64,000 bases of DNA from Schmidtea polychroa (Eukaryota): the NCBI GenBank assembly GCA_044892525.1, contig CM097887.1, positions 23,622,001 through 23,686,000 of the forward strand, given 5' to 3'. The notes under the pieces are model-generated. The model searched no databases, was not told the DNA's origin, and saw only the letters and a list, made by a program, of their open reading frames with translations. The position numbers and the translations under genes are program-made. Below, piece after piece: positions 28,356-57,545 of the stretch (its first letter is position 1; the number at the start of each line of letters is the position of its first letter).

Positions 28356-29369
28356 CACAGGTATACGTAAGGGAGATCAATCGTAAGTCATGAAGGGTGT
28401 TTAGGGAAAAAACCTGAGCATAACATCAACCACCCTAAGCACCCAACACAATTTTGTCGACACAAGACATATTCGAACTGGGCAACTTCCTTTGATGCTT
28501 CCTCGATCGATTGAATCTGCTGGATTGATAGTTTTCACTGAAACTTTGGAGAATTTGGATAAAAAGTTTTGATAAAAATTAAGAAAGTGAAATATAGAGA
28601 GTTTTAAAAACTATGGTTTTGTGGTTAAATAATTAAGTCTTGAAAATGACCTTTCTCCAGTACAACTAGTGACTATTAAACTGAGAGACAGTCGCAAAAT
28701 TGATTACACATTTTATATTAACATGTCTTTCATATTACAGAGCTAACATGAATATAAAAGAACGTAGGGATATCAGTGAGCCGAACGCGCTGATATTAAT
28801 TTATACATTTTGAATGTTTATTTATTAGTCATATGCGTAGAATTTCTCCTTATTTTCGGTCCAATGTATCAGTGATCACTGTTTTTAGAATAGTGTAATT
28901 TTAATTTTATCAACAATTTCAATATAAGCCCCTCTTGATCTTGAGGACCTAGACTGAAGCCTAGATAGTTGATAGGAAAATCCCGCCCTGCTTATACGAT
29001 GGGAATAATATAAACAAAATTTCTGTTTTATTATAAAGTAAGCACATATGCACAGTAACAAATTTGAACTGCTACTGCCTAATGCACAGATGAACAAGTC
29101 AAAAATACAATCTTTGACTCTCAGCCAATATTTTCTCACGTGGAAACATACGTTTCTGGTCATGAAGAGGTTAACTATTTTTCAAAAAATTATTTTTGTT
29201 TGATAATTATCCTCCTTGCCATAATGTGTGTATTACATTTGTTGGGGCTGGGCTCGCTTAGGCAGCAATTTTGATAGCCATATAGAGGCTAGGGTTATAA
29301 TTATAATAATAATAAATAATTACTTATTAATAAAAATAGAAATAATTCCTATAAATAAGTTAAGATAAG

Positions 29370-29373
<4 letters not shown>

Positions 29374-29453
<80 letters not shown>
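29374..29453. repeat. (TA)n microsatellite, ~40 units
   Basis: Direct inspection. Confidence 0.95.
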
Positions 29454-29454
<1 letters not shown>

Positions 29455-30359
29455 TATAATTAACTAAGTTATGAAATTTATAAACATAAATATGTGAACG
29501 ATAACTCAAAAATTAGAGAAAAAGTTTGTGTTTCGCTGAATCAATATTGATTACAAGCCACTTCCAGAAAACACTACCAGCTGAGCAATAAGCAATAATT
29601 AACAGCCGCAAATTTGGAAAGTTATTCAAAGAACACAAAAGAAGCAAAGCATTGAATTATAATAAATTCCAGCTGTCGCTCATTTAGAATTGTATAAAAG
29701 GAGATTCTCAAATCGAGAAATTAGAACGGAGAGAATACTGAAAAAGCTATATCAGCTTAAAGTTACTCGTGAAACCAGAAAGAAAATTAAACGATATAGG
29801 ATTCTTAACCATAAGGTTATTTGAATTCTATTTAATAATAATTTTGTTAATTTAAAAATTTCACAACCTGAAGCCGACTCGTCTGAACAATAAAAATTGC
29901 ACACAAGAAGCAGCAATTCGGCCTGACTTGCTCGTCGGCTTAAAAGTTTAGAACGGAATCACTTTAGGAAACGTTAGACCGACCTTGGTCTAATCGATTG
30001 CGCAAACTTCGGAGAACCCCTCCATCTTGACCAATTCTTTTATACAGCGCTGAGAGGCATTAGTTTCAGCGTTCGAATAACCGATTTCTTTGCTTAGAAA
30101 TTAGCGGCATTTTTGGGCTACACAATATTCAATTTTGTATATTTTGTGCATAATAAATAAATCTTTAAAAAAGTATCAAAGTCTTGGTTAAATCATATTA
30201 TTTAAATATTTACACGCATATATTTCTATACATCTTTGAAGTCAGATATAGTCTGTGTTAGGAAGAATCTATCCACCAGAACCTAACACATTTATGTATT
30301 TTTTCGTGTGCATTATAATTATGGATTTATCTTATATTTTGTTTTATTAAGCTTTAGAT

Positions 30360-30930
30360 CAATGGTGGCCAACCTGCGCCCGCGGAGCACATGCTAATAT
30401 TTTATTCTTTTAATTTGCGAAACCACTAAAAGAACATTGTACAATGCATAGTTCGTATCATATCTCATATATGGAAGTATCTCAGAACATTAATTCAACC
30501 ATCATTACAATTTCTTCCATGGTATATTTGTGTATCCATTGTGTGCGTTTTCGTCATGTGACTCATGAGAATTTACGATCGACTTTTATATATACATTGA
30601 TAAGAATACAAGCTGCTATCCTGTATTAGTTAAAAAAGAAGACCCACAATGAGATCAAGTAGTAAAAACGTTGAACCAAAGAAGAGACGAGTTCCTGAAG
30701 AACTGAGAAGTTTGTAAGACAGATGAACTAAAAAACTATTTTTTCGTGGAATTTGAAACAAAGCGAATATGCTTGATATGCAATAATTCTGTTTCTGTTT
30801 TGAAAGAGTATATCATTAAACGGCATTAAGTTTGATAAGTATGAAGGGCAATTTCAATAAGACCAAACAAATGAATTAAAAAGAAAACTTTCTGCACAAC
30901 ATCGGATATGTAATAGAGCGGCTCAAAAGT
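30360..30930 (+). mobile_element. hAT (GTF2IRD2-like) 5' remnant
   Basis: Terminus-like CAATGGTGGCCAACCTGCGCCCGCGG; degenerate FFVEFETKRICLICNNSVSVLKEYIIKRH. Confidence 0.7.
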
Positions 30931-31082
30931 CAACATGCTATGGAAAAGCATATGCAGTGGCAAAAAAATCGAAGTATATAGGGTATTTCGGTATTATATA
31001 TTTACATTTCAAAATTATATATTGAAATTTCAAAATTATATATTTATATTTCAAGATTATATATTTTGATGCGAATTTAAAA

Positions 31083-31540
31083 ATGATTATTAGAAAATTA
31101 ATGGAAGAATCAACTATTTTAACTCCGAACACACCTCAACGTAAGACACGAACTCCTGTCAACCTAGAAAAAATCAATACAATAAATCGACTTAAGCAAT
31201 CAGGTCAATGCACAAAATTTATCGCCGAAACATTAAATCTAAGTATATCAACAATTACTAAATTATTGAATAATATCCACTGTTGTAACGAAGAAAATCG
31301 AGAACTAAATACTATTCTTAAAAAGAGCAATAACAAGAAGATGAATAAATAAATCATCACGAACGGTTTCTACTGATGTGATTAACCAACGAAAAGTATA
31401 TTCAAGAGAAATGCGACTTATTCCCAAGTGAAAATTAATTTTTTTAGATGAGAGTGGATTTAATCTCCACACAGGTGCTCATTATGGATACTCACCTGTC
31501 AAGGTTGACGCTTTTCAAATATTGCCATCAAACAGAAGCA
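31083..31540 (+). mobile_element. IS630/Tc1-like transposase 5' fragment
   Basis: HTH (IAETLNLSISTITKLL), then FLDESGFNLHTGAHYGYSP...ILPSNRS with the first catalytic Asp. The frame runs straight into the cassette ORF below. Confidence 0.75.
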
Positions 31541-34500
31541 GGACAGGTAACTCTAGAATTACAGAAGAATGTGGGAGAAGCTGGACCCGAATCATGCGAC
31601 TCTCTGGAATTCCAAACTCAGATGCGACCCGATACATTATGAGCATTCTGCTGGAGACAAACGATCACAGCCGAGAAGGAGATTGCATGGCCCTCAAGCT
31701 TCTTACCTCAATAACCAAGAAGACAGAGGAGGAATATGAGATAAACAGGCGAGATTGTTTGGATTTTTCTAATAATTTAAATAACCTTAATAATAAATTA
31801 AAAAAGAATTCTCAAACCCAAAAATCTTTAAATGATGATAGCCTTTTTGACCAAAACAGAAATGAATACAACAAGATTGTTAATAGCTTTATAAATCCTA
31901 CCCTGCAATATATGCCTATTGACAGGGGAAACGTAGATCTTAATCCGAATAAGCCCAGTTATAGAGACGCCCTTATTGGAAGCAAATCATCTTATAATAA
32001 ACTCCCCATGGGAAAATCCTTCTCTGTGCCTCCAAATAATAAGACGGTATCTAATAATCATCGAAATACCCTTAAAGACTTCGAAACTGAAACTATGCCA
32101 ACACCAGTACCAATTAATGATAATAAAAATAGACCTACTAATAACCCAAATAGGAACAATAATCTTGGTTCTAACAGATCAAAAACCAGTTATTATGATA
32201 ATAAAAACAATTTGCATTATAATACATTGAATCATTATTCTAATAATTATGAAACTACTTCTTATAAAAATTCAAATAAACTGAATCATAATGATATTAA
32301 AGCTACCTCTACTAATAACTCTAATGATTATACAATCACCGGAATATTAATTGCATGGAGAAACCCGATTAAAAATGATTACATGATAAATGTAAACGAG
32401 GCATTCACAAGAGGGGAAAATACGTTGATGAGGGAAGCAATGAAAGGACACAATTTATTCGAAATTCCAAACCAATTATTAGAACGAGGAATAAAGTTCA
32501 CGAACCATAAAGACGAACAGCTACTAAAGAAACGAATCGACACCTTCGAAAAATCAATATTTCAGTTCATAAACAAAGTATGAGATAGATATTGGGTTAG
32601 TGTATTATATATGATGAATACGATGAACAATATCCGCGAGAATTACCTAGACATTATTCAAGTACTTACAGCAGAAGAACGAATCAATAACTCAACCGGA
32701 AAGGAAATAAAAATAAAGAAAGGAGTATCAAAGGAACCGAAGTCGCAAACGAATCAAACTACAACAAATAACGTTACCGAAACAAAACTAATAAATTCAG
32801 ATCAAGAAACAATAATACGCAAAGCCAAAGAAGTGTTCTTCGAAGAAATGCAAGAGTTATCAGACGAAATGATATTGTCAAAAATAATGAAAACCGTACA
32901 TACGTATGCAAGAGATCAAACAACGAATTTAGATATAGGGAAAATCAAAACCTTCATGCCACGAGCATTCACTATGGTAACAAAAGATCAACGAACACCA
33001 TTACAACAGGCAATACTGGCAGCAAAAGAAAACCGAGCGATAACGATCATATGAATCCTCAGAGATTTGGGTGACGAAACCAACACGAAAAACGAACAGG
33101 GCGAAACAGCGATGATGTATGCAGCTATAACAAAAATACACCCAAAAACACTACACATACTACATCAATCCGGATCAAGACTAGACGAGATATCAAACGA
33201 AGGAAACTCCACAATGGATTGGGCAACCATACAGCCAAACCTAGAATTGATCAGATTTATTTGCAAAAATGCGACAAGAGAGGAAGTTGAAAATATCTGC
33301 AAAAACACATCTCAATTCCAGTGGAATACCGTACGAAAAAATCTGGAAGCAATGAAATTACTATTAACATGGAAAATACCGCAAAGTAATAAATACGCGA
33401 TAAACGTAAACGAATTTTATGAAAACGGAGAAAATGCGATGGTCAAAAATACATTAACTAAAGGGGGGACACCAAAAATCATACTAATTGTATTAAATAG
33501 AGAAGATCTGAGATTCACAAAAAACCAAAACGAACAGCAACGAATTGGAAAACACCGCCGTGTACAACTAAGAGAATTAGTAAAAGAATGGAATCGGAAA
33601 AGACACGCAGCAACCGGAAGAAAGGAGTTCGAATTTGAAGCTAAATTAGCAAGAAATAGAGTGTTAACAGCATATCGCAGACTATTGAACGATATAAATG
33701 TCGAGGACGACATTTTAAACGACGGCGGGGGAGACAAAGACGATGATAATGACGGGAAAGGTCAAAAGGAAGATAAAGAGAAAAGAAAGCCGGATGAGAA
33801 TAACCAAGAAAACAAAGACCCAGGTACGGAAAAGGAGGGAAACAACCCGGAGAACGAGATGAAAGGGGAGGAAAAAACAAATAATGGAAAACAGAGGGTA
33901 TGCCTACCTTTCACCAACAAAGAAATGGAAACAAATATGATATTATTGATAATTGTGCTGACCATGATAGAGTTAGTAACAGCCCATGGAGGAACGAGAA
34001 CGATAGAAGAGACCAAAGAAGCGGATAATCACGACAACAAACAGGAAGAACTAAAACAAGAAAAGAAAAAGCAAGTGCAAGAGCAACAATGGGATCTAAA
34101 AGAGGAATGGAATCTAAAGGAAAGGTGTATACTAGGAAGATGCATGTCTAGAGCATATCAGAGATTAGTGTTGATAAACGAGGACACAGAACCAATAACG
34201 GAAGTGGGAATACAAGAAGCATACCAACATCGAAACGGGAAGAGAATAACGAAGGTAAAATGGAAGGAGATACACCTAGGGAAAGGAGGCGAGATAGCGA
34301 TAACAGAACTCCAACCAAGGAAAGAACACAAAGTCTGTATCTCAAGGTTAGGACCGGGAGAAAACTGCCTACAATATGTAATACAGCAACAACCACCAAA
34401 AGAATATACGGTCTGTATCATAAGGAAAGGACCGGAAAGGGAATGCCGACGATACCCGGGGAAAAGAGGAAAGAAAAGAAAAATCAACGACAAAGGAGAA

Positions 34501-34974
34501 GAGAAGGAAAAACGCAAGAAAACCAATGAGAAAAACCAAGACAATTATGTGTCAGAAGAAGAAATGGAAAAAATACAAAATATGGCAAAAGAAGGTATCA
34601 GCGAGGAGATAGCAAGAATACGAGGGATGATGAAGGGAAATGGGAAAAGGGGAATCGAGAAAAACACAAAGACGGTATCAACAATTACGAACAAAGAAAA
34701 ATCAGAAATTATCAGCGTAAATCAGATGATATGGATCAGTGGAATAATAATAACCCGAGCGTTCATAATTATAACGGGGGGGGACGATAAAAATAATCCG
34801 AGACAAAAGACAGCGTCACCAACTCGAAATGATCAGAGTCAGAAATTTCCAACATCGAGTGAAAAGACCCAGCAAAATAAGCCAAGAACAGTGGATGGAG
34901 GCCTGGAATACGCAGCGCCCTCCAAATCCACGGATATAGAAAGGGTTATGACTGTATATAATTGTAAAAAGTAA
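31540..34974 (+). pseudogene. Cassette ORF1: ~1145-codon ankyrin-repeat / membrane protein, 5' end missing, two in-frame TGA
   Basis: ORFs 31522-32583, 32611-33054 and 33067-34974 are one frame broken only by TGA at 32581 and 33052. Order: Asn-rich region, three ankyrin repeats (RTPLQQAI, GETAMMYAA, GNSTMDWA), charged linker, hydrophobic MILLIIVLTMIELVTA, tandem Cys motif (KEHKVC..C / KEYTVC..C), second hydrophobic segment. Confidence 0.7.
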
Positions 34975-35101
34975 GTATATCTTATGTATATAACAGTACC
35001 ATATTTTTATATAAACGCGGTATAAATATTATAAAAGCTCGGGTAAATAAACAATATAAAATTAAATAAGACAAAGATTGAGAATGTATATAAAATTAAG
35101 A

Positions 35102-35461
35102 ATGGATCAAGTAAATCACGAAATAAACCACAACATCGCAACCGAAGACATGTGGAAGCAACAATGCGCTGTGCTAGCACAATTAGTATCTAATCTACAA
35201 GAGCAAGGACTTACGATGCAAAGAAACCTAGTCGATAGTCTAAACAGAGGATTTAGTTATTTAAAAATAATTGAGGATCAGAGGATAAAAATCGAACAAA
35301 TGCAAAGAGAGATAGAACGGATAACACGATATAGTCAGAGACAAGAAATCGAATTAGAGAGAATGGCGGAAGAAGCAGAACAAGAAGAAATGGAAGACTG
35401 GTCAGAATGGTTAATGAGGAGAGAGGAGGGCGGACATGAAGCCGACTCGTCTGAACCATAA
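35102..35461 (+). CDS. Cassette ORF2: small coiled-coil protein with acidic tail
   Basis: Open ORF with heptads. ATG at 35102 follows TTAAG-A. Confidence 0.6.
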   Translation: MDQVNHEINHNIATEDMWKQQCAVLAQLVSNLQEQGLTMQRNLVDSLNRGFSYLKIIEDQRIKIEQMQREIERITRYSQRQEIELERMAEEAEQEEMEDWSEWLMRREEGGHEADSSEP

Positions 35462-35545
35462 ATAAAACCCAAACTAGATGTAAATAATTGTAAATAAAAT
35501 ATCGAACCTGTATCGATAAGAAACTATATGTATATAATTGTAGAC

Positions 35546-36881
35546 ATGGATAAAGAGAGACGAGAGGAGTTTAACGTAATCATTGAACTAGTCAGAAATT
35601 CCACAGTAATCAAAATACAAAAACATGTTATGTGCGGAATATGTGAAAAGTTGTTAAAAGAACCCCATCAAACCAAATGCGGATGCAGATTATGCAAAAA
35701 ATGCATAGAAGAAACAATAAAAAACAGACCACAGTGGTGTCCGGTATGTAAAGAGACACTGATATCAAGTTTAGAAGATACCAATGAAGATAAGGCCGCA
35801 GTAAAAGATATGTTGAACGCTAATCTGGGATGCAAAAATACTCCATGCGAGTGGAAAGGATTAATATGGAAAGTAAAACAACATATGGGGGAATGTATGT
35901 ATAGAGTCAGCCAGTGTGAACGATGCCAGAAAATAATCCAAGCTAACGAAGAAAAAGAACATCAAAGTCAATGTGAAGAAAGGCTAGAAATATGTGAGTA
36001 TTGCGGAGAGATAGACACATGGAAAAACTTAACCATCAAACATCACAATGTACAAGAAGAACAGGTATGCGCTGAATTCTGTGGTGAATGCCCAAATGGA
36101 TGTGATAAAGGCGGAAGGATAAAAATAGCACAGCACTTAAAGGAATGTGAAAAGAAAAGAATGATATGTGTACTAGGCAAATGGGGCTGTCGGAAACTAC
36201 TACACCGAGGGGAATTACCACACCACTTAACAGAAAATGTAGCCACTCACGCAGAAATGTGGTCAACTGCGTTACAAGAAAATGAAGAAAAGGTTTAACA
36301 AATGGAGATAGAAATAACATCGTTGAAAGCATTGGTAAAGGAACTATTGGAGGAAAGAGAAGCGTTCGAGGAAGCCCGAGCAAACATAAAGATGCAAATA
36401 AATCGGATAGAGATCAGTAATAATCAGGCCAAGGAACTACATCAGAAAATAAACGAAATAAATCTAAACGAGGTAATACCAACAGCGCCTTATATATGGA
36501 AAATAACAGGAGTAAAAGAAAAGATACGAAAAGCAAAAACTGGGGAAGAGACAAGAATAACAAGTCCTGCATTCCATTCTTGGAAGAACGGGTATAAAAT
36601 GAAAATGAAGATATATCCCAACGGGGACGGAACCGGATTAGATACACACTTTTCGATAATCTTTCTGTTATGTAAAGAGGAATATGACGAAATATTAGAA
36701 TGGCCGTTTCAGGCAAAAGTCGACATTATAATAATGAACGATCAAAGCATACACGAGCAAAGCTTCAAAACAACGGGGAATCAGATAGCCTACCAGAGAC
36801 CCCTCGACGAAGAAGGATCAGCAACGGGAGCACCTACGTTCATTCTGCAACGGAAAGTGGAAGAGATGACGAGAAACGACA

Positions 36882-36957
<76 letters not shown>

Positions 36958-36996
36958 ATGACAGTGAGGAAAGACGGAAAGAGCCGAACAGAGTAG
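35546..36996 (+). pseudogene. TRAF: Cassette ORF3: intronless TRAF-family protein (RING, TRAF zinc fingers, coiled coil, MATH)
   Basis: RING CGIC...CGCRLCKKC...CPVC; CKNTPCEWKG; CERC/CEYC/CPNGC fingers; MATH YIWKI...GYKMKMKIYPNGDGTG..HFS...EYDEILEWPF. One in-frame TAA at 36296. A (TA)n expansion shifts the last strand DTIYIKMTV out of frame. The specific paralog is not assignable. Confidence 0.92.
36884..36954. repeat. (AT)35 microsatellite inside the TRAF MATH domain
   Basis: 71 nt AT run in place of the ATA TAT ATA codons. Confidence 0.95.
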
Positions 36997-37182
36997 CCAG
37001 TGTGAATAATGTTGTATATAATTTGTATATATCGGTGCATATAACCAATAAAATAGTATATAATAAAGGTATGGGAACCTCAAATACGACAACCCAAAAA
37101 TGAAGCGAAAAATCTGTGAAAAACATTAATTGAATAATAAAATTGTTACAAAAATGAATTTATCAATACCTCTAATTTAGAA

Positions 37183-38091
37183 ATGACACAAGAGCAAATA
37201 ACCACAAGTACTGAGGGTCCAGCAATAATCAGAATTAGTGAGGAAAACAAGAGGAAGTGGACTACAGTAATGTCTCAATTAGCCAACCTAACTAGAAATC
37301 ACATTGAAGAGGCTAGGGAGTATGAAAATAATAAATATCGATGGCTAGTAGACAATTTGAGAGCCGAGGCAGAAGCGTGCAAAAGAGCCTCTAAGTGGGC
37401 GTCGTTAGAAAATACCCGTCAGGAAGCGCACAGTCACTACCTAAAACAGCTAGTGCAAGAAGCAAGAAAGAGACTTACTGATGAGAACACAAAACGAGAA
37501 GCGGAAAAGCAAAGAGAAGGAAGGAAAATGATCCACCTATTGGCAGAAGCCAGGAAATGGAAGCGACAAAGCAGAGAGATAATAAAGGAAATGAAGGAAT
37601 TGCCTACGAGATTAAAATACGAAAGCGAACAGGGCAAATGGGAGGAGAATCTAATCCTAAAGGAGGAACAAAAACGGCTAAGAAAAATTGCCGCCCGAAG
37701 TCAAACATGGCAGACTAAGGCCATGGAGTTTGAAAGACACTTAGCAATGAAGATCTCCATAAGGGAACACGAAAATGCCGCAATGGAAGAGATGATACTA
37801 CAGCAATCGGGACGAGTCGTGGAATTAGCAAATAAAGTCGCCGAGCTAGAACGGGATAACAATGGGTATAAAGGAGCTCTGGAACAGAGAAATATGGTAC
37901 TGGAGGGGAAAAATAAAAAGCTAGAGATCGAAAGGAAAATGTATGATGAAAATATTAAAAATTTAGAAATAGAGATCGAAAAATGGAAGGGCGACGAAAA
38001 AATCAAGGCACTAGACAGACAAATAGAGGTGAAGGACGAGGTACCTCACCTATTTGCTCGACGAGGAACTCAACATTTCAAGGGCACTTAG
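37183..38091 (+). CDS. Cassette ORF4: 302 aa E/K/R-rich coiled-coil protein
   Basis: Open ORF with continuous helical/heptad character. ATG follows TTTAG-AA. Confidence 0.7.
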   Translation: MTQEQITTSTEGPAIIRISEENKRKWTTVMSQLANLTRNHIEEAREYENNKYRWLVDNLRAEAEACKRASKWASLENTRQEAHSHYLKQLVQEARKRLTDENTKREAEKQREGRKMIHLLAEARKWKRQSREIIKEMKELPTRLKYESEQGKWEENLILKEEQKRLRKIAARSQTWQTKAMEFERHLAMKISIREHENAAMEEMILQQSGRVVELANKVAELERDNNGYKGALEQRNMVLEGKNKKLEIERKMYDENIKNLEIEIEKWKGDEKIKALDRQIEVKDEVPHLFARRGTQHFKGT

Positions 38092-38401
38092 AGATGAAAT
38101 TCACAAGCTGAGAGCTCAAATTCCCCAACACTATGTACCTTACGACCCCGTTGCTATCCAGTTACGGTCTTCAGTCGAGAGCGACGAAGGATACGTGGGG
38201 CAAGAGGAGACCTTCGTGTAAATAAATACTATGATTAAAAAGACAAAAAAATTATAAAATCGGGACCTATATCCCAAACAAAAAAATTAAAGGTATAGTA
38301 AAAGTATCCAAGGGACTGTAACCCTAATTATCTAAAATTGCATATGAATGTATAAGTATAAGCCGCATTATAGCGCACTATTAATTGTACATATTATAGA
38401 C

Positions 38402-39103
38402 ATGAAGATTGAAGAAATAGTAGAGCTCATGAGTGACGTAGAAGAAAGAGAGATGGAAGCAGAAACCACAGAAACACAAATGCTAAAGGAAGAGTTATGG
38501 GAAGAGAAGCGTGAAAACGAGAGATTAGTAAACAAATACATAGAAGACCGGAAAATAATAAAAGTACTAAAGAAAGAGTGTAAAGTATTAGGAGAAGTAA
38601 AGAGAAAAGTTGAAGAGGAAAACGAATGACTTCACGAACAAAGGAAGCGAGGGAAAAACTGGGAAAAGATCGCGGAAGAATTATGGCAAGAAAGAGCCAG
38701 TAGAAAAGCAGACGAAGTAATTAGCGATTATTGGAAAACAGAGGCACGGAAACACCAAGAAAGCCTGAAAGAGTTACAACTCCAACTACATCATAAACAA
38801 AAGGAATGTGAAATAATGAGAAGAATGAACCACAAATACCAAGAAATAGACGATGAGAAGAGAAACAGAGAAGATGGAGAAAGAGAAAAGTACTTTCTAC
38901 AACTGATGAATCATAAAAACTTAGAGAGAGCCACCCAAGAAATAAAAGTATTAAAAAGAAAAATAAAAATCCTAAAACAACAGGTAGATGAAAAAGACAA
39001 ACAACTAGAAGTACTACCCGAATTAAGAAAACGGGTAATAAAAGCAGAAACTAAAGTGATGAGAGCATCTGAGAAAGCCCGAAAAAAGAAAGCCCTTCAA
39101 TAA
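38402..39103 (+). pseudogene. Cassette ORF5: coiled-coil protein with one in-frame TGA (38627)
   Basis: ORFs ending 38629 and starting 38816 share a frame with no other stop. ATG at 38402 follows TATAG-AC. Confidence 0.7.
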
Positions 39104-39157
39104 TTAAAGATGAATAATCGATGTGAATAATGGTAAATAAAAAATATGTATAATAGT

Positions 39158-39796
39158 ATGTGGCCCGGAGCAACCCTCGTAATAATGATAATAATAATAA
39201 ACGAAATTCAAGCGAAACAGTCAACCCAAAAAGGCCAGAAGATTACCGAGAATCAGATTTTCCCACAAGACCTCATAACCAAATTAAGAAACGGAAGAAA
39301 ATCCTACAACCACATCCAGAAACAATGTTGGAACAAAGCCGTCTGGCAAAAGATTCAAACGCAACTCATCCTGCAAACCCAAAAAATCGAACAACTCAAA
39401 ACTCTTCTACAAAAACAAACTATCCAACAATCCTTGAAAGAAACCATCGTGAAGAAGGAAGCCAAAGAGAGTCAAGTCTTACTCTATATTACAATCAGTG
39501 AAACCATCATCATCTGCACGCTAGTCATCTGGAAAGCGTATGATATCCATCGAACATGGCAAAGAAATCAGCCACTTACCGAGAAACCCAAAAGAAAGAA
39601 ACCACGAACAAGAAACGTACCAAAGCGGACAGTACATTTTCAACAATCCGATCCACCTGACCTATCTCCCAGCCAGATACCCGCGACAATTCAACTCACC
39701 ACAGCGACAACATCGACAAGCCATCCAATCCAGAATTCCCAAGATTCTCGACAATCAACCAGCGATGACAGTAATCATGACATCGACTATCCATGA
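39158..39796 (+). CDS. Cassette ORF6: predicted type I membrane protein
   Basis: Signal peptide MWPGATLVIMIIIINEIQA, Q/K-rich helical ectodomain, TM VLLYITISETIIICTLVIW, basic then S/T/P-rich tail. ATG follows AATAG-T. Confidence 0.65.
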   Translation: MWPGATLVIMIIIINEIQAKQSTQKGQKITENQIFPQDLITKLRNGRKSYNHIQKQCWNKAVWQKIQTQLILQTQKIEQLKTLLQKQTIQQSLKETIVKKEAKESQVLLYITISETIIICTLVIWKAYDIHRTWQRNQPLTEKPKRKKPRTRNVPKRTVHFQQSDPPDLSPSQIPATIQLTTATTSTSHPIQNSQDSRQSTSDDSNHDIDYP

Positions 39797-39921
39797 ACTT
39801 TGTGTATATAAATCTGGTCACCTTAAGTGACATCTGCTTGCTTTATATTTGTCCTTTAACCAGTAATATAGTCTTGTTTTATTTTTGCTTTTTATGTATG
39901 CATGAAGTAAGTTGAGTATGC

Positions 39922-39959
39922 AATTGCGGGACGCAATTTTGTCGGGTCCCCGAGTGATT
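39922..39959 (+). promoter_or_regulatory. Pre-LTR hairpins at the expected polypurine-tract position
   Basis: AATTGCG-GGA-CGCAATT (7 bp stem), TTT, then TCGGG-TC-CCCGA and GTGATT immediately before TGTTGGG. Not a canonical purine run. Confidence 0.4.
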
Positions 39960-40292
39960 TGTTGGGCTGAGTCGAAAACTTAACTTTTGAAAATTTAGAA
40001 AATAAGACAGTAGGATATTAAAGAAAATAAAAATAAAATAAATAAATTCAGGAATAAAATAGAATAAGAAATAAGAGAAACAATAATTAGAAAATAAGAA
40101 TTAAAACAAAATAAAAATAAGAAAAATTAAAATAAGACAATTGAATGACGAACAAAATAATGTAAAATTCAATAAATAATGAGGAAATTAAGGAAATAAA
40201 TAGAAAATATAGTAAAAATAAAGGAAATAAGGAAAAATAACCAAAAAACAGGAAAAAGTAAATTAAATTAAGAAAATAAGCGGTACTCAATT

Positions 40293-40329
40293 CTGATTGG
40301 TCCGCATACATGCAAAAATACTATATAAA
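40293..40329 (+). promoter_or_regulatory. Inverted CCAAT box plus TATA box of LTR-B
   Basis: CTGATTGG 40293-40300 and TATATAAA 40322-40329 after a ~300 bp A-rich tract. Confidence 0.7.
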
Positions 40330-42752
40330 CAGACACGAAACTCATTGCAATCACTGTTAATTTCAACTTGCTATAGACGATAACCACGCAGAATTTACGG
40401 AACCTACTCAAAGAATAATATTCAACACGAAATCATCGCTATTTAAGGAAACGACAGGATCAAGGACTAATAGACAAACCTCACAGGAAACTAGCTCGTA
40501 AACTTCGACTCAGCCCACAATAAATTTCGAATCGATAACTATAGTAAGAAAAGTTTCTATTTGTTTTTAGATTATTAATTATTATGAAGTATTACCTAAC
40601 GATTGAAAACTTTGTTTAATAATAGCGTGTCTTTTCATTTGATTTCCCCGTAATGGATTTTGATTAAATTAACTATTTTAATGTCTTATAGTAAACATTC
40701 ATAAATAAATTATTTATTTCAGGAAGTTTTTGATGATGTGTTTTCATGCATGAATATCTTACGAATCTAAATTTTTATGAGAAACGTGGCGTTAAGACGG
40801 ATGGCGTCATGGTAAGAGGTGCCTTCGGGAGCTCTGCCGGTGGACGTGCATCGTTTCAATCACGCAGCTGGATTGGGCCTGAAAGTGAGGGTCCAATCGC
40901 TGAAGATGACTTAAAATTTGATTTGAGTGACAGAAATTTGGTCATAGTAGTAGTTCTAAGCCTATAATGGAGTATAGCTATGCGATTTACAGTGATTGAG
41001 GTGAACACTCTATCTATACGTACAAGCTCCGAGGGTACTGAGTAGCTCTTCGAGAGAAACATGCGAGCTAATAATGAAAATCTCTGAAGTGACTGTCTCT
41101 ATTCGTTCGAAACTTGGCTCTAAGCTCGAGTGAAATTTAGTCTCCATTTACTTTGACAATAATTACGTTTTTCGGAAATCATCTTTTACCTTCTAAGAAA
41201 GTACAATCACGGCGGGTATAAAAGAAATTCAATCATAAATTAAGACATATGAGGACATTTTATTTAAAACACCGTTATGAACAGATTGTCTACTACCTGA
41301 ATCAGTCTCCTTTTCTACGACTCCACATGAGAGGCATCATCGTCGAAACAGCTCTTATAGTCACCTTCTAGTTAATCTAGGGAGACGTTTCCGCACCTGT
41401 TATATCCAACGGCGGAAGACACGATAGTTAGTGACGAAATCCAATTTCGTAGAACAGTTGTGAATTAATAGGCAATGATGCCATCATAAAATTTTCTAAC
41501 ACACGATAAGTAGATAAGTAAAGTCCAGCACACGTTAGTAGGTTCTATGAACACGGATTGGTGAGAAGTGAACGATTTGAATTTTCCAGCGTTACGTGCA
41601 TGGATTGATAAGAGGTTCATCAAGCAACACATGAATAGATAAACCTTATGAGAGTGATTGTTGATAAGCACACTGCCACTAATCTCACCTGACAGTACAC
41701 ACGATAAGATTTTGAGCAATGTGAATAGCAAGGAGTGATCACATTAGATAAGAAATAGCACGAAACGCAGAACTCCGGTTGTTAACTCTCAGATCATGTT
41801 GCTGATAAAATATTAATGTCACTAACCAGATAAATTAACCAAATCTGTAACCGACTGCAGAATGTCCAGACGCATTAAAGTACATTTATAAATTGACCCT
41901 TCTCAATTATCATCGAAATTGTTGGGTAATTATTGTAGACAATCCTAAATTTCAACTAAGCAATACGATAAAGTCATATGAGCCTTTACTACAGTGAATT
42001 GTCGGAAGTACGGTTAAACGCCTGAATAGATAAAATCCCATCCAAATGATTTCCAAAAGAATCCTAAATAATTAGACTAAATTTTCTAACCTAACTAATA
42101 AGCTTGTATTTTAAAAATTTCTAACCCCTTAGTAAATAATGCATGCTTATAACCCTGTCATGAGAATCACGAGTTACTCTACCGTTTGAGTATATTAATA
42201 TAATCCTACACTCCGGATAACAATCTCAAGGTGTGGTTTGAAGGTAGCACCAGTAGAAGGGTATGACGAGTGAATTGACTGAATTCAGTAGCGCTAATAG
42301 TATAACTCTGCAATAGTTTCGTTTTTCTAGAGACCTTAACTAGCAGCTCAAACAACAACCTAAAGTTAATTAAGCAAAAACCGACAGTACAGTAAATGAT
42401 AATACAACCTACTTTAACGGGTAATCAGCGATATTTTGAGTAATCACCATAGGAAAAAAATAATAGTTAGTAGTAGTCAACCAACCAGTAACAGTAAAAC
42501 GAATTATAATTAACCAGGGTAAGCAAAAAGCGGAGAATATTATAAGTAATTATTTAAGAGTAGTGTACGACATATCTGGCGCTACCGCTAAAATCGATCT
42601 AATAATAGGTTCAATAATTCCAAGGGAGGGTTCCTTTCTCTACTTCCTGTGTTTGTTTATATCTGATAGTAATTCAGCCACTACTCCCAATTCCCAATTC
42701 ACAGTCATAGTATAACTTAACCCTCATGTTTCCTTCTTTACAGTTATTCAAC

Positions 42753-43502
42753 ATGTTACCGAACAACAAGTCAGTACTACAGCCTTGCTTCTCCTGTGCA
42801 GATAAAAATGCAGTGATTAAAGATCTACAAACCCAGATCGGTCGATACAAGCGTAAAATCGACGAGCTGGAAGGCACATGGTTCAGCCCAGTGCAAATGA
42901 AAGAAGTGCAGAAAAAGCTATACCGTAGGGAGCACTGCCGGGACGCTCTAATCTCCGAGAGCCGCTCCCAACGAAGCTTAATTAAAGAACAATCCGAAGC
43001 GCTACATAAGGTATATGTACAAGCAGCAACAACTAAGAAAATCGTTCAAATCCCCCTCAATGAAGCCGATAATCTGTTCCCAGTGCACCACGACACCTCG
43101 GCGAAGTCATCGTCTCCATTTAAGAGATCATGTCGTGAGTGTGTAGAAACCGAGCTTTCACCGAAATGTCTAGATATTATCTTCACGGGGACTAGTAAAG
43201 CACAGCCCAACATCATACCCACATCCGCAGGGCCGCAGGTGAATCAACCAATATCGAAACCTAAACGCCGGCAACTATCGAGGGCCGAGCGCAAGAAGAG
43301 GCAGCGCGAACGAGCGTTAACCAAATCAAACAACCCCTCAACGGGAAATCCGATCAATATCGACAACTCCCACATATCCATCGATCTAACCACAGGAATC
43401 CCAGCGCGGATTATCTCAGCCGCTGGTGTGACATGGGAGGAAAATGCCGCCGAATTCTTCGATTTAGATGAATTGCTAAAAGACACCGAGTGGGAGAAAT
43501 GA
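42753..43502 (+). CDS. LTR-encoded 249 aa protein (CxxC, coiled coil, basic NLS-like tract, acidic-hydrophobic C-terminus)
   Basis: Intact ORF 9 nt after a TTTACAG acceptor (AG 42742-42743). Motifs CFSC, KPKRRQLSRAERKKRQRER and EFFDLDELLKDTEWEK*. Homolog at 26967-27742. Confidence 0.8.
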   Translation: MLPNNKSVLQPCFSCADKNAVIKDLQTQIGRYKRKIDELEGTWFSPVQMKEVQKKLYRREHCRDALISESRSQRSLIKEQSEALHKVYVQAATTKKIVQIPLNEADNLFPVHHDTSAKSSSPFKRSCRECVETELSPKCLDIIFTGTSKAQPNIIPTSAGPQVNQPISKPKRRQLSRAERKKRQRERALTKSNNPSTGNPINIDNSHISIDLTTGIPARIISAAGVTWEENAAEFFDLDELLKDTEWEK

Positions 43503-43770
43503 ACACCCACCGCGAAATGCTCTCCTTGACTACCATCTGATATACTCTTTTGTCTTGTATTTTCATTGATTCTCTCCCTTATGATAGTAACCTTTGCAAT
43601 GTACAAAATTCAGTGTTATAATATTATAATAAAAGTGTTGCTCTTATCTGTCTTTTGGTGAGGAATTACGTACCGATTTTTGGGTGAATGAAAGTTTTCT
43701 AGATTTGAAGTGTCTCAGTAAATTTGCATTCGGCGTACTTTAGCGGGGGTTTTGACAGCGTGATTAGACG

Positions 43771-43890
43771 TAAGCCCTCCTATCGGCGGTCGTGTGGAAG
43801 AAAGTCGAGGCCTCAGTAAGGAGTAGTTCTAAGGCAGGGGCTCACCTGCTTACTGGCGTCTCGTCGGCATAGTACAGTTCCAACGTGAAA
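43771..43890 (+). other. Conserved structured element near the 3' end of LTR-B
   Basis: TAAGCCCTCCTATCGGC (43771-43787), then CAGTAAG-GAGTAGTTCTAAGG-CAGG-GGCTCA-CCTG-CTTACTG (43814-43855). Confidence 0.7.
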
Positions 43891-44028
43891 TAATTCACGG
43901 GACTATGTTGAAGGATAGGTTATGTGGGGTTCTACTCAAATTTGACAAAAGGATAGCTATTAGGCGAAAATGGACAATCACCCCTTAGAGCGTTAATATA
44001 GGGCGGTCAACCGAGTGGTACCCCAACA

Positions 44029-44303
44029 CTTACGAAAATGAAACAAATTTTGAACAAGCTAGGAATAATAACTTCGAGAAGTACAAAAATTTAGCAATTG
44101 ATATAGGCCATGCACACAACTGCAAAACCTCACTGCTAACTCTTGTTATTGGTACACTTGGCACATGGGATAGGAAGAACGACAAAGACCTAAGGATAAT
44201 TGGTCTGAGTAAAGCAGAAATTAAAGCTCTAGCAAATAAAGCCTGTACAGCAGCCGTAATCAGCAGCTACCACATATACAGAGAGCACATCTACAAAGAC
44301 TAA
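44029..44303 (+). mobile_element. 3' end of an REL-endonuclease non-LTR retrotransposon (NeSL/R2/R4-type); target of the LTR element
   Basis: (P)YENETNFEQARNNNFEKYKNLA...LVIGTLGTWDRKNDKDLRIIGL...SSYHIYREH*. Not in the ORF track. Confidence 0.85.
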
Positions 44304-45399: not shown

Positions 45400-47170
45400 C
45401 CGAAAAAGATGATTGATATTGATAATGTTGATATTATTATGAAACACCCGCATATTGACAAAATACATCGAACTAAAGTAGCATGTGTTACACCGATGTA
45501 GGTACTACTATTGGAATCAGATAGCGAATAACATTATACAGCAGTTCCTGATTTACAACGACTAATAAATTTCCGCAAAACTCATAGTTACACAGTCCGT
45601 ATCCAATGCAGATGGTGCGAGACATGTTTCAGAAAAGAGAAACAGCTTTTACCAAGCATGCAATATTATGTAAAAAGAATCAATTGGGCACCAATTATAC
45701 ACGTTACCATATCACAAGGACCTAAAATTTAATGAATGGTCAAAAATAGTAACTCCTCCATTTGTCATATATGCCGACTTTGAAGCGATTTTGCCTCTGG
45801 ATAAATGATATCACCAGAAACATCGATAGCAGCGGAGTTGTTACTGGTAATTAATTTTACAGGGGCCACAAAATATATGGATTTTATTTTGGCAGATTGT
45901 GTATATCGTTTTCTGGTTGAAGTTGAAAATATTGTAAATAGTATCGTGAGGGTTTATTACAAGAAAATGGGCCATATGCAAATGAATTTCCTCACTAATC
46001 AAGAAAAATTGCAGTTCCGCACATCAGTAAATTGTTGTGAAAAAAACCTATGTTAGAGCAAATGAGATACCGTCATCACTTTACGGGCAAATATCTAGGA
46101 CCCGCATGCAATGTATGCAATAAACAACGAAAAATCAGAGAAACATCGCCTGTCTTATTTCATAATCTTAAAGAATATGATTTACACCATATATTGAAAT
46201 ACGGACTCAATCAGTTTTCTCATCGGGGTCCCAGTTGCATTCCAAAAAGAACTGGGAAATTTTTAACATTGATAGCATGGCTGGGAAATTTCATAATAGG
46301 ATTTATAGACTCATACCAAATTGTTAATACTTCGTTGTACAATGCAGTTAAAACATTGAACGAATTAGCATTGATTCGTTCAGTTTTTAATACTTGAACT
46401 AATATTAATAACACAGGTATATTTCCTTACGATTTTGCCACCAGTTAGGAAATCCTAGAAACAACGTATGAATTGCCTTCTATTTAGGAAAATGTTACTA
46501 ATGAAGCGTATGAAATAGCGCGACAAATATGGTAAGAAACAAAATGCGAAACTCTAATGGATTATTTACAAATATATTTGAAGCTTGATGTGTTTTTGCT
46601 TGCCGATTTTTTTCTACAATTTAGAGTAAAATCAAAAGCACATAACGGACTCGAGCCGCTTAACTTTTTTGGAATCCCTGGAATGACTTAGGCATTTGAA
46701 ATTATCAATTGACATGGAAATGTATAATTACTTCGAGGGTGGAATCCGTGGTGGTCTCATATTTGTAAATAAACACCACGCCGTAACAGATGATGAAACA
46801 GAGTTACTTTATATCGATATAAACAACTTGTACGGGTGGGGACTAAGCCAGAACTTACCATGTGGTGGATTTGAGTGGATATATGATGAAGAAGCGTTAT
46901 TATCAATTAACAGATTAACAATTAACAATTAATATATGAATGATTGCGTTAATAATAGACTGGAATTATTACCATATGGATACACTTAGAAAATGGAATT
47001 AGTTATTCCATGTAATATTCATGATTTATTAGACTATTTTTCAGTGGCTGCTCAGAAAATGTGTCCACGTGTAGCTATCCCTCAATTTGCGCCTATGAGT
47101 GTGAGCATCCATGGATCTACTTCGTAACCATCTTAATTGATTATTACATGCCGAATTGAGGAAATATCAT
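45400..47170 (+). pseudogene. polB: Polinton/adintovirus-type protein-primed DNA polymerase B, heavily degenerate and 3'-truncated
   Basis: PPFVIYADFEAIL (Exo I), HHFTGKYLGPACNVCN, VLFHNLKEYDLHHI, FIDSYQI, GIFPY, YLKLDVFLLAD, EGGIRGG, LYIDINNLYGWGLSQNLP. Many frameshifts and stops. Confidence 0.9.
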
Positions 47171-48255
47171 TTGTCGTGTATTGTGGATAAATAAATCTTT
47201 TTTATATAAATGTTTTGTGTTTTGTTTTATAAATATGTAGTGTCAATAACAATGACCATTTTTATGTAAATAGTATATTATCAATTAGTTTTTTAATATT
47301 TTTACGTATATATTAACTACTGTAATCAATTTTTTATGAAAGTTTTCATTGTTCTAATCAATTTTTGAAACTTTTAATAAATATTATAATTAAAATTAGT
47401 GAGTATCAATGCAACATAGTTGTAATTTAAACAAGGCAAATGAGACACACGTGCACGAATCTGATTGGTCATGCTTTGTTATAAATACGTGATGTTTATT
47501 GAAATTAGTCATATTTTACAAATGAAAAAGAAAATGATGACTGAAAAAAATGAAATCCAATAAATGATAGAGTTCAATTGTAACCAGTTCAATTATTCCA
47601 CAATTACAAAATGTATTTTTTTAAATATTCCAAGTTAATAAATCCGATAAAGTTATGCAAAACTCCTTATCCACATCTGATAGCTATCTTATCACACGAT
47701 GATATTGATGCCTTGAAAAATGTTTTTGCGAAAATAAATAGTCATATTCAAATCACTATAACTGCATTTTTCAATGACCTTTATACTAGATTTTATGATG
47801 GTTTTCAAGAAATCATCTTTAAAGAGAATGAAAATTGGTATATCATAATGTGTATAAGCAAATATTAAGAATAGATCAAAATAATATATTTTCTCCAATA
47901 TCGCGAATAGATCGTGCAAGACTTGCTTTTGGATTATATATATTAATTGTTTTCAAATTTGGGTCACTCAAAATCAAATATTTAGAGCTAACCTGATCCT
48001 TTGATAATAATATTTTGTTTAGATAATTTGGACAAGGCGATTATGCCTTCTTTTTCGGAGCGCCTAATTCCATTTCGTTAAAATGAATTTAGAAGACAAA
48101 GCGATGATTTACGTCTTTCTTATTTTACCTGAAGTCGTGAGATATTTTGTATGTTAATTACTGATATCATGCTAGGTTAATTATAAATAGGGATAGGATA
48201 ATAATTTATTAACTATTATTAATTTTACTCTTATACAAACGGTGTTTTAAATAAA

Positions 48256-48840
48256 ATGACTGGAAACAAAAATTTGTTTTCGGATCCAAAAATAACTGTT
48301 CAAGCACAACTTAATGAAAGAAAGCAGAATGGCACTGCGGTCACTTCCAAACATACCTCCAAGATTATTCCTAGTGATTTTAACAAAGACCTCATTGAGA
48401 ATTCCTTACCAGAACCTTCTAAAAAAATGAGAAAAGCCTGGCTTTTTTTTAAAGAAGCAGGCCCGAATAAAGTAAAATACAAACTTTGTGAGTACAGTAT
48501 TAAAATGAAAAAAATGGCATGATATATCATATTTCTGAAAATCACAAAACGTATATGACAAAAGTTGATGAAAATATTAGTAGAAGCGAAGATTTATCCG
48601 AGCTTTTGTACAGATTGATTCTTGAAGATGGTTTGCCGCTGAAATTTCTTGATTCAAAGAATTTTAAAGCATTTGTGACCTTTCATTTTTAATATTCCAC
48701 CCAGACGAGAATTTACAACAACAGGCCATACGAAAATACATGCCAAAATATTTTATTGTTGCTCGGTTTCATTTATAACAGATACCTGGACTTCTAAATC
48801 AAGTGAATCTTTTATAGTAATTACACCCCATTTTATAGAT
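48256..48840 (+). mobile_element. hAT (Ac-like, BED finger) 5' fragment
   Basis: KAWLFF..KVKYKLC BED remnant, EDGLPLKFLDS, ITDTWTS..SFIVIT.HFID; cut by the next element at 48841. Confidence 0.7.
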
Positions 48841-51690
48841 CAGTGATTCCCGTCCCGTGGTAAGCGTACTCCTGGGGGTACGCGAAAAAATATTAGTAAT
48901 GGCAGATGTTAAATATAACTCCCGCCTCAATTTAGTTACAAAGCGGTGGCAAACATTGACAAAAAAAATTGTTTTAGCGCTCACTATTTATTCACAAAAT
49001 ATTTTTCAAAGTTATGTGTGCCCCTCGGAATCGCATGATCACATTACAACGGTTGTGTTAGAATTCAAGTGGACCCAATGTTACAAAGCGTGTCTATTGT
49101 AGTGTGACAAATTTTACTAATTTTACTAATATTACTAATTAATAACAACTTTATTTTCAAACGGTAAGTTTTAACATTATTTTAATTTCAAACTTAAATT
49201 AATTTCTAAATGAATTTAGGATTAAATATGGATCAGTGATTGAAAGCTGATACAATAAAAAACAATAAGCGTACACTAGAAAGTGACGAATTAGTTAGTA
49301 CTTCTCAAGTCACATCAAAAACACAAGTACAAATACAAAACACAGAAAATGTGCCGTCTTCAGTTCTGCAGATAGCTAAAAAGAGGAAATACTGCGACGA
49401 ATATATGAAATATGGATTTTCATATGCAGGAGGTGAAGACAGCCGTAAACCAAAATGTGTAGTATGTGGTGAAGAGCTATCAAATGGCAGTATTTTTTAC
49501 GTCATCTCCAAACAAAACATGCCAATTATTAAAACAAAGAATATGATTTTTTTAAACGCTTAGCAGCTCAAAATTTGAAGATGTCAGTTTGACATTGTAC
49601 ATCCTGCCAGCTAATAAAGATAACGAAAATGCGACTGAAGCTAGTTACCGCATTAGTTACTGTAACAATCATACAATTGCAGAGAATCTAATTCAACCAT
49701 GCATAGAAGATGCTTTTCGGTGTATGCTTGGAGAAGAACATGTGCAAAAAATAAAAAATATTCCTCTTACAATATCTCGAAGAATTTTGGATATGTCTGA
49801 TAATTTTGAGGCAACAGTGATTGATAGAATTAAAAACAATAAGGTTTTCGCTATAAAAGTTGATGAAAGCACGGATGTTGCAAATTTTGCTATTTTGCTT
49901 GTTATTGCGAGGTATTTAAAAGACAATGAAGCCGATGAAAACCTTTTACTTTGTCATGCTCTGTCAGAACACACAACAGGTGGGTATATATTCAAAGCTA
50001 TCGATTATTATTTCCAAGAAAAAGGCATAAATTGGTCTAATTGCTGTGGGTTTTGTACCGATGGTGGCAAGTCTATGTCAGGTATTTATTCCGGTCCGCG
50101 CGGTCGAGTCTTGAAGATTGCTCCCAAAATAAGTTGCTGTTGCATCCACAGGCAAAGTTTGGCATCTAAGTAAAAATAAAAAATATTCCTCTTACAATAT
50201 CTCGAAGAATTTTGGATATGTCTGATAATTTTGAGGCAACAGTGATTGATAGAATTAAAAACAATAAGGTTTTCGCTATAAAAGTTGATGAAAGCACGGA
50301 TGTTGCAAATTTTGCTATTTTGCTTGTTATTGCGAGGTATTTAAAAGACAATGAAGCCGATGAAAACCTTTTACTTTGTCATGCTCTGTCAGAACACACA
50401 ACAGGTGGGTATATATTCAAAGCTATCGATTATTATTTCCAAGAAAAAGGCATAAATTGGTCTAATTGCTGTGGGTTTTGTACCGATGGTGGCAAGTCTA
50501 TGTCAGGTATTTATTCCGGTCCGCGCGGTCGAGTCTTGAAGATTGCTCCCAAAATAAGTTGCTGTTGCATCCACAGGCAAAGTTTGGCATCTAAGTAAAA
50601 ATAAAAAATATTCCTCTTACAATATCTCGAAGAATTTTGGATATGTCTGATAATTTTGAGGCAACAGTGATTGATAGAATTAAAAACAATAAAGTCTTCG
50701 CTATAAAAGTTGATGAAAGCACGGATGTTGCAAATTTTGCTATTTTGCTTGTTATTGCGAGGTATTTAAAAGACAATGAAGCCGATGAAAACCTTTTACT
50801 TTGTCATGCTCTGTCAGAACACACAACAGGTGGGTATATATTCAAAGCTATCGATTATTATTTCCAAGAAAAAGGCATAAATTGGTCTAATTGCTGTGGG
50901 TTTTGTACCGATGGTGGCAAGTCTATGTCAGGTATTTATTCCGGTCCGCGCGGTCGAGTCTTGAAGATTGCTCCCAGAATAAGTTGCTGTTGCATCCACA
51001 GGCAAAGTTTGGCATCTAAGTTCCTTCCAGTGCAAATGAAGCGTATTTATCAGACATTTTCATACGTACAAACAATCTAAATTTAGCACTTCAAAATAAC
51101 TCTATATCGATATTCAATGTCTCGGATAAAATTGAATCAGTGATTAAAAAAATTAATTTTTGGAGAACATGTATTGAAAACTGTCAACCTGAGGTATTTG
51201 AAACTTTGCACAATTTCCTATCAGAACTTTGCCTCTCCAGAGAATTGAGCAACAAATATGAACACTTAAAAGAGCTAAAATCAAATTTCGAGAAGCATTT
51301 TCACAAACCTGATGTAGGAAACAATTGGATTTCAAATCCTCTCAATGACGAATACTTTCGAATAGCTTAATTTTCAATCACTGAAAAAGAGAACTTAATT
51401 GAACTTTCAAATGATTTTACTTTGAAAGTCGAATTTAAAGGAAAATGTCTTATTAACTTTTGGTCAGATATTAGTACCGAATATGAATTACTTTCTGCCA
51501 AAGCGCTTAACGTTTTGTTACCATTTATAAGTACAGTGCTGGTGGAAAGAGCATATATCTCCATATCTCTTTATTAAAAACAAATACAGTAATAAGCTGA
51601 ATGCAGCTAGAGATTTAAGATTATACCTTGCATCAATCGAACCTGACTTCAAAAACTATGCGCCTCAAAGCAATCTCAAGGATCTCACTA
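48841..51690 (+). mobile_element. hAT (Charlie/ZBED5-like) element, degenerate transposase
   Basis: Left end CAGTGATTCCC...GGGGGTACGCG. Motifs KRKYCDEYMKYGF, CVVC, VDESTDVA, CTDGG, CCIHRQ.LA and a hATC region ending QGSH*. Confidence 0.88.
49747..51021 (+). repeat. Tandem triplication, 3 x 425 bp, inside the hAT transposase
   Basis: Units 49747-50171, 50172-50596 and 50597-51021. Copies 1 and 2 look identical; copy 3 differs at about 3 positions. Confidence 0.95.
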
Positions 51691-51899
51691 AATGTAATAA
51701 GTTAAAAGTAATGAAAAATTTTAATGTAAAAAATATTATAGTTTATATTCATGTCGTTTTTTATTATAATATATGTAACTATAAATAATGTTTTACTTTT
51801 CATCAATACACATTCTGAGCATACTCCTTGACACATTAGTGTTCGAACAAGTTTAAAATAATAACAAATACGCGAGTATTAATATTTTAATTTGCTTTT

Positions 51900-52289: not shown

Positions 52290-52305
52290 TTTATAATAAA
52301 TAAAA

Positions 52306-53085: not shown

Positions 53086-53096
53086 AGCTTGTCGAC

Positions 53097-55972: not shown

Positions 55973-55988
55973 TTTTAAAAGTTAAAAA

Positions 55989-57441: not shown

Positions 57442-57545
57442 TTTTTATATTACTAAATTAGCAATTGCGCAGCTTGCTAGTTTTTAAGATTTAAAATTTT
57501 TAGAATTTTATAAATATAAAATTTTAAAAAATGACAAAAATCCGA

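Follow-up and report, generated by a model that had tools for sequence, protein, structure and literature searches.

The window analysed here is a 64,000-nucleotide stretch of Schmidtea polychroa DNA. On its plus strand, at 35,546 to 36,996, lies an intron-free, broken copy of a TRAF-family gene, recognised by its open reading frame (ORF), by Pfam and PDB matches and by a structure model. A single colinear frame begins at the ATG at 35,546 and runs through a RING, a series of Cys/His fingers, a long helix or coiled coil and a MATH domain. Because this frame is colinear with whole TRAFs, the gene has no intron. The RING (35,633 to 35,749) matches Pfam zf-C3HC4 above the cut-off (E 6.6e-5). It has eight Cys ligands and the motif CGCRLC, which is common to the TRAFs of triclad hosts. 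Five TRAF-type zinc fingers follow at 35,834 to 36,250, with approximate limits read from the conserved Cys/His columns of the alignment and from the model. Pfam zf-TRAF has no match in the window protein although it does match the relatives. The MATH (TRAF-C) domain, strands 1 to 7, occupies 36,491 to 36,880 and matches the TRAF-type family PF21355 (E 2.9e-23), its last strand being frame-shifted in the window copy. In a PDB sequence search the structures closest to the MATH part are TRAF1, TRAF2 and TRAF3 (E about 1e-23), and the RING-finger part is best matched by TRAF6 and TRAF5.

An AlphaFold model of the protein, built on 16 aligned sequences, has a mean pLDDT of 82.6 and a pTM of 0.40, with a helix at residues 232 to 305. 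Foldseek with this model ranks the N-terminal RING-zinc-finger region of TRAF6 first. The protein therefore has the parts that define the family, an N-terminal RING with eight zinc ligands, fingers plus coil, and a C-terminal MATH domain. An earlier sequence-only reading had proposed an intronless gene with this layout, and frame, Pfam, alignment and model all confirm it. The serine-rich receptor-binding loop with which TRAF1 and TRAF2 grip receptor peptides is partly diverged or not conserved in the PDB alignment. Given this divergence, the protein may equally well act as a decoy or on altered targets as serve as an ordinary adaptor.

The same reading overlooked two breaks, and this copy is not an intact gene. 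An in-frame TAA at codon 251 (36,296 to 36,298) interrupts the early coiled coil. A TA microsatellite of about 35 units (36,884 to 36,954) lies inside the last MATH strand, where it puts the end of the domain out of frame before the frame closes. With the stop and the TA run in place the window copy lacks an ORF able to make the whole protein, and the full TRAF cannot be made from it. The microsatellite, sitting within the MATH coding stretch, suggests a repeat born in the gene after loss of function. Further copies were read from contigs of public runs at 85% likeness; six runs contain the stretch or part of it. The window's stop is common to much of the depth (87% in X1). A different letter stands at this codon in 13% of the depth in X1, in all of it in X4, in 61% in X5 and in 28% in X8. 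The stop site thus varies between copies, and the break is common to some of them and absent elsewhere.

The gene belongs to a cassette of about 7.5 kb (about 32,340 to 39,796) in which every long ORF is on the plus strand and A-rich. AT skew is 0.41 over 32,341 to 39,796 and 0.03 to 0.04 in the flanks. T occupies 8 to 14% of four-fold sites in the two halves of the TRAF gene and 6 to 16% in the cassette, so that the A-rich codon bias attributed to both is borne out. In the window's fucosidase exons and hAT, Tc1 and Polinton ORFs the corresponding values are 27 to 62%. The exons, on the minus strand at 11,485 to 17,674, presumably belong to a host alpha-L-fucosidase-like gene with large exons, to judge by its motifs, and served only as a control for codon use. 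An ORF at 42,726 that is unrelated to the cassette is also T-poor at four-fold sites (14%). The bias therefore marks retroelement-like ORFs and not the cassette family alone.

Six coding units make up the cassette, and most of the ORFs contain stops. The first is a long A-rich frame (32,341 to 34,974) with two in-frame TGA codons, which encodes degenerate ankyrin repeats followed by two hydrophobic segments. Its left end is cut against lower-copy DNA. It is followed by a short coiled-coil-like ORF with no convincing family match (35,102 to 35,461) and by the TRAF gene. Downstream are two further coiled-coil-like ORFs, one at 37,183 to 38,219 whose first frame ends at 38,091, and one at 38,402 to 39,103 with a single in-frame TGA. 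The last is a small ORF (39,158 to 39,796) with a hydrophobic N-terminus and one predicted membrane segment. Homologue searches with the 37,183 ORF and with the ankyrin ORF found none of near length, and a longer, fused polyprotein relative of the latter may exist. ESM Atlas returned only generic ankyrin clusters for the ankyrin ORF, and Rfam has no match in 28.5 to 44.4 kb.

The ankyrin neighbour had been linked to the TRAF gene through the IkB pathway, a link that is unsupported. An IkB combines a DSGxxS degron with at least six ankyrin repeats. The ankyrin ORF has one short, weak Ank_2 match (E 1.6e-6) and no DSGxxS in its 877 residues, and so shows no mark of an IkB. In its second half (33,925 to 34,971, plus strand) the long frame has the look of a type I membrane protein, with a signal-like segment, a Cys-bearing region, a membrane segment and a Tyr-bearing tail. 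It has no match in ESM Atlas or PDB, and an FN3-like look noted by eye was dropped for want of a PDB match.

At its left side the cassette is joined to neighbours of other kinds in a single frame. From 31,432 to 34,974 on the plus strand this frame extends for 1,180 codons with the two TGA codons and has three origins, namely a Tc1/IS630-like part, an Asn-rich low-copy part and the A-rich cassette, which begins at about 32,340. This last junction cannot be put down to faulty assembly, since in both X1 and X4 a contig free of differences spans it. The end of the short cassette ORF, at 35,434 to 35,462, has 29 nt in common (93%) with a repeat 5.5 kb upstream, at 29,866 to 29,894. The upstream stretch directly follows a segment of 400 nt (29,468 to 29,867) whose ends are inverted over 17 nt.

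Short spacers separate the ORFs of the cassette. The six spacers (34,940 to 39,959, plus strand) have TGTANATA on the plus strand, AATAAA after most stops and AG before the likely starts. In their 807 nt, TGTANATA occurs 9 times on the plus strand; dinucleotide shuffles give 0.64, and none of 2,000 shuffles reached 9. At least one match is present in 5 of the 6 spacers, and 11 of the window's 23 plus-strand matches fall within 34,953 to 39,810, where the minus strand has none. The motif is above chance window-wide as well (40 against 18). AATAAA follows the stop in 5 of the 6 spacers, and a pyrimidine followed by AG stands one or two bases before 4 of 5 likely starts, compared with 4% of all ATGs. 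The motif and the start codons were picked after looking, and homology backs the TRAF start only.

With such signals between the ORFs, one may ask by what means a retroelement would express the five or six that lie downstream. The motif UGUANAUA is the Pumilio consensus. A poly(A) signal with an acceptor close behind it resembles trans-spliced operons or PUF-controlled messages. A Kozak-like context, or per-gene promoters, would be simpler explanations. In the contig data, the 15 listed of 124 joints include none that matches splicing onto the candidate acceptors. A joint from 29,320 to 39,181 was treated as false, since both of its sides are ATA-rich and one is 21 letters long. Spliced-leader splicing has been described in Schmidtea, according to the consulted part of PMC12582326. 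The ordinary reading of UGUA motifs through CFIm is weakened by Schmidtea data, in that PMC5068929, in its available portion, reports neither UGUA enrichment nor CFIm.

Beyond the last ORF is an LTR-like candidate of 560 nt (39,960 to 40,519, plus strand). It has TG...CA ends, a 14-nt perfect inverted repeat, an A-rich tandem tract and, by eye, CCAAT-like and TATA-like boxes. No purine tract of 12 or more lies beside it and no primer site was seen. The window contains no LTR pair, and no long direct repeat fits such a pair. Motifs of reverse transcriptase, integrase, protease, gag or env are absent from the cassette and from 28 to 46 kb. The fragment, whose left end is missing, is 5'-truncated and without pol. 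As the window holds neither a pol gene nor an LTR pair, the carrier is something that we infer.

Contig depth indicates a repeated family. Across the TRAF gene, summed depth comes to about 1,100 to 1,900 in X1 and X4 and 4,100 to 5,900 in X5. Near-exact single contigs, chosen from 32 listed records, have depths of 10 to 25 (X1, X4) and 29 to 57 (X5). The ratio of TRAF depth to the median of near-exact single contigs is 99, 81 and 107 in X1, X4 and X5, summed depth not being the same as copy number. Contig depth suggests roughly 40 to 110 copies of the cassette. Among the X1 pieces, 2,185 of 3,229 are less than 95% alike. Diverged contigs over the TRAF gene in X8 (records 28 and 29) were considered as expression and rejected, X8 being only guessed to be RNA.

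Differences between the copies lean towards silent changes. Of the best-supported 40 of 2,417 differences, 28 fall in cassette frames, or 27 when the stop site is excluded. Synonymous changes account for 16 of these 27 (6 of 10 in the TRAF gene), where the same changes placed at random would give 7.6 +/- 2.3 (P 0.0006), in what is a small selected sample. This favours purifying selection on the family, as judged from copy sequences.

The sequence-only reading called for a phylogeny with host TRAFs. In that analysis the window gene nests among the TRAFs of triclads. Tree rows were chosen from a FastTree run on 120 rows, and the non-homologous tails of broken models were trimmed. In a mixture-model tree of 24 rows the window gene is placed in a clade of 18 rows together with named triclad TRAFs (100/99). 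Within the same tree it groups with P0004, P0001, P0011, P0015 and P0142, making six rows, the A-rich set plus P0142 (97/96). A plain-model tree of 34 rows unites six A-rich rows (97/92) and leaves the wider triclad clade as an open fork. The A-rich rows were flagged as compositionally odd in the tree runs, and their grouping may be partly driven by composition.

Identity between the window TRAF and its nearest A-rich relatives is just 32 to 40%, which points to an old capture. At this distance every ligand position of the RING and the zinc fingers is nevertheless conserved in the alignment, as is the core of the MATH domain. Among the database relatives P0004 is whole, and in P0001, P0011, P0015 and P0089 homology ends in or after the coil with no MATH match. 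Broken models thus make up 4 of the 5 database relatives in the A-rich subclade, as expected of gene models on decayed repeat copies. The window copy and these four models all break in or just after the coil with loss of MATH. Products with only RING and fingers may be a recurring form or a mere artefact of the gene models.

More distant relatives are Dendrocoelum lacteum TRAF-2, TRAF-4 and TRAF-5 (P0009, P0013, P0029; the names are database labels) and Dugesia japonica TRAF2-like A (P0016). They have the same architecture, belong to the same clade and are 25 to 31% identical to the window TRAF, which differs from them in its A-rich codons, high copy number and broken frame. Searches for related loci in viral contigs, and in metagenomes with alignment A2 as query, found none. 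Three metagenome matches of 30 residues to the N-terminal half were set aside as chance, the one that was opened (L001) being unrelated bacterial-type DNA.

The RING of the window gene had been singled out for its Cys in place of His. The substitution is present, but it does not stand as a hallmark of the element. Ligands were counted in 119 single-architecture hits of 260 to 620 residues, 33 of 152 hits having been dropped by length. Within the gene's clade, 15 of 18 members have Cys as fourth ligand, one has Phe and two are without a readable RING. Outside the clade this ligand is Cys in 7 of 101 and His in 66 of 101. The three Dendrocoelum proteins have the same Cys for His, and P0016 is without the RING region. 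With 15 of 18 members affected, named Dendrocoelum TRAFs included, the variant belongs to the triclad lineage and came to the element by descent. Since zinc is normally bound by Cys as well, an all-Cys RING need not be dead.

The identity of the carrier is best approached through known planarian elements. Burro elements carry MATH_TRAF_C, ankyrin, Smc-like, BIR and BCL2 motifs, the Burro of Dugesia tigrina has MATH_TRAF in an accessory ORF upstream of the polyprotein, and decayed Burro copies with stops and frameshifts occur in D. japonica (all from the consulted part of PMC6431247). The window cassette agrees with these giant gypsy-like elements (Burro/GYPSM1) in its planarian host, in its MATH_TRAF, ankyrin and coiled-coil (Smc-like) cargo, in having MATH_TRAF in a separate accessory ORF as in D. 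tigrina, in its decay and, by the rough count, in its high copy number. It differs in several respects. The review, as far as consulted, gives Burro/GYPSM1 a MATH_TRAF_C domain only, whereas the window has a whole RING-zinc-finger-coil-MATH gene. The window fragment is without the gag, env, PR, RT and IN polyprotein and without BIR or BCL2 domains. The accessory MATH ORF of Burro lies upstream of the polyprotein, and the window cassette sits before the LTR-like segment. We infer that the cassette behaves like Burro cargo, likened to the published description and not to Burro sequence.

Two further systems offer parallels for a selfish element with a regulator of cell death. Burro1 carries an IAP, B-IAP, a RING-BIR protein reported to protect stem cells (Lee et al. 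2026, as related in the consulted part of PMC13465017). Here too a host cell-death regulator with a RING is found on a planarian retroelement; that protein is an IAP (RING plus BIR) with a reported function, whereas the window gene is a TRAF known from sequence alone. Some large DNA viruses have TRAF homologues acting on host death signalling, among them ISKNV ORF111L, which promotes apoptosis (PMC3352826, in the part available), and giant-virus TRAF-like proteins. There is no sign of common descent with these, the structural matches being 11 to 27% identical. In planarian hosts, knock-down of TRAF raises cell death, according to the consulted part of PMC7586133.

High copy number, cassette-wide strand and codon bias, triclad nesting and the excess of synonymous changes support the proposal that a mobile element carries a TRAF of host origin. 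For LTR linkage the window offers one LTR-like candidate and no pair. More specifically, we favour the reading that the gene is an accessory gene of a Burro-like giant gypsy LTR retroelement of triclads, present here as a decayed copy, with a probability of roughly 0.58. Long ago the element would have acquired a TRAF from its host, probably in the form of a processed transcript, a route through mRNA with which the intron-free frame agrees. Within a cargo cassette the TRAF would then have persisted as an ORF of its own, its codons drifting to the A-rich usage of the element. Where a copy is uninterrupted, its protein might trimerise through coil and MATH, with the all-Cys RING as a putative ubiquitin-ligase module. 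It could compete with or bias host TRAF signalling so as to keep alive the stem cells that support replication of the element, a role suggested by analogy with the reported IAP cargo of Burro1.

The TRAF could instead be the cargo of a non-autonomous retroelement, of a tyrosine-recombinase element or of a Polinton-like element with a promoter and poly(A) signal for each gene. Such an element would agree with the individual signals that bracket each ORF and with the want of pol and of an LTR pair in the window, and a Polinton remnant does lie nearby, at about 46 to 57 kb. DNA viruses, too, carry TRAFs. That remnant is separate from the cassette, however. Its ORFs are on both strands and have 36 to 62% T at four-fold sites, against 6 to 16% in the cassette, which has no capsid, ATPase or polymerase gene and no long terminal inverted repeats. 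The TATA-like motifs stand merely some 10 to 17 nt before the likely ATGs, and we regard a carrier of another class as rather unlikely.

A functionless passenger, copied like a processed pseudogene, would be expected to look much like the window copy, with its two breaks, neighbouring ORFs with several stops and a stop that recurs in many copies, and 4 of 5 database relatives are broken as well. The synonymous excess among copy differences speaks against it, as does the retention of RING and zinc-finger ligands and of the MATH core at 32 to 40% identity, together with the whole frame of P0004; we find this explanation quite improbable. Segmental duplication of a host array of intron-free TRAF genes is very unlikely. 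Planarian TRAF/MATH genes are indeed expanded (PMC6109357, PMC7586133, in the parts consulted), and host genes have the same RING variant. Against an array, the codon and strand bias of the cassette differs from that of the host fucosidase exons, the cassette lies amid transposon remnants with an abrupt left junction that is free of differences in two runs, and most copies are 85 to 95% alike with an LTR-like segment at the end. A Burro-like retroelement remains the favoured carrier.

A bolder form of this retroelement reading would bring the spacer signals and the copy number together. It holds that the element lineage has a complete, selected TRAF, a ubiquitin-ligase adaptor, in an operon-like cassette. 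The long transcript of the cassette would be divided into single-gene messages, each ORF being followed by a poly(A) signal and each next ATG preceded by a splice or spliced-leader acceptor, PUF-type UGUANAUA sites would set stem-cell expression, and the copies would form a sizeable share of the TRAF expansion. As a whole this is distinctly unlikely.

The last element of it touches a wider problem. Planarians have 121 to 282 MATH/TRAF transcripts, an expansion called unresolved in meaning in the portions consulted of PMC6109357, PMC7586133 and bioRxiv 2021.10.12.463740. In the available text of the latter two the word transposon is absent. No statement was found in the literature that element-borne TRAFs inflate the TRAF count, nor were a full RING-to-MATH cargo and strand-specific TGTANATA, AATAAA and AG-before-ATG spacer signals; the primary Burro reports (Grohme 2018, Lee 2026) and their supplements may cover these points. 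As far as the consulted literature extends, MATH/TRAF and ankyrin cargo in Burro elements is already known, and what is added here is a whole TRAF architecture as cargo.

It is plausible that element copies are part of the planarian MATH/TRAF count. The A-rich, multi-copy and mostly broken TRAF subclade offers a direct test of the expansion. If many MATH/TRAF models are element-borne, family counts and the results of RNAi on 'TRAF-like' genes need rereading. A full TRAF under selection, if true, would join the IAP of Burro1 as another cargo that favours host survival. TRAF cargo would extend the habit of giant planarian retroelements of carrying cell-death genes.

The DNA to the right of the cassette is rich in other mobile elements. 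A Polinton/adintovirus-like remnant occupies 46,041 to 57,444, with polymerase pieces, a packaging ATPase, a phospholipase-like ORF and pieces of a double jelly-roll capsid. It is interrupted by a Tc1-like element (53,544 to 55,068) with 217-nt inverted repeats and by hAT pieces. Within a hAT transposase piece, at 49,747 to 51,021, are three head-to-tail copies of 425 nt that are 99 to 100% identical, either a recent tandem duplication or an assembly artefact. The segment at 41,244 to 42,305 has a depth of 61 to 70 in X1 and X4 and of about 0 in X5. At 43,368 to 43,898 depth exceeds 16,000 in three runs, marking a very abundant repeat beside the end of an endonuclease-like ORF (43,989 to 44,303).
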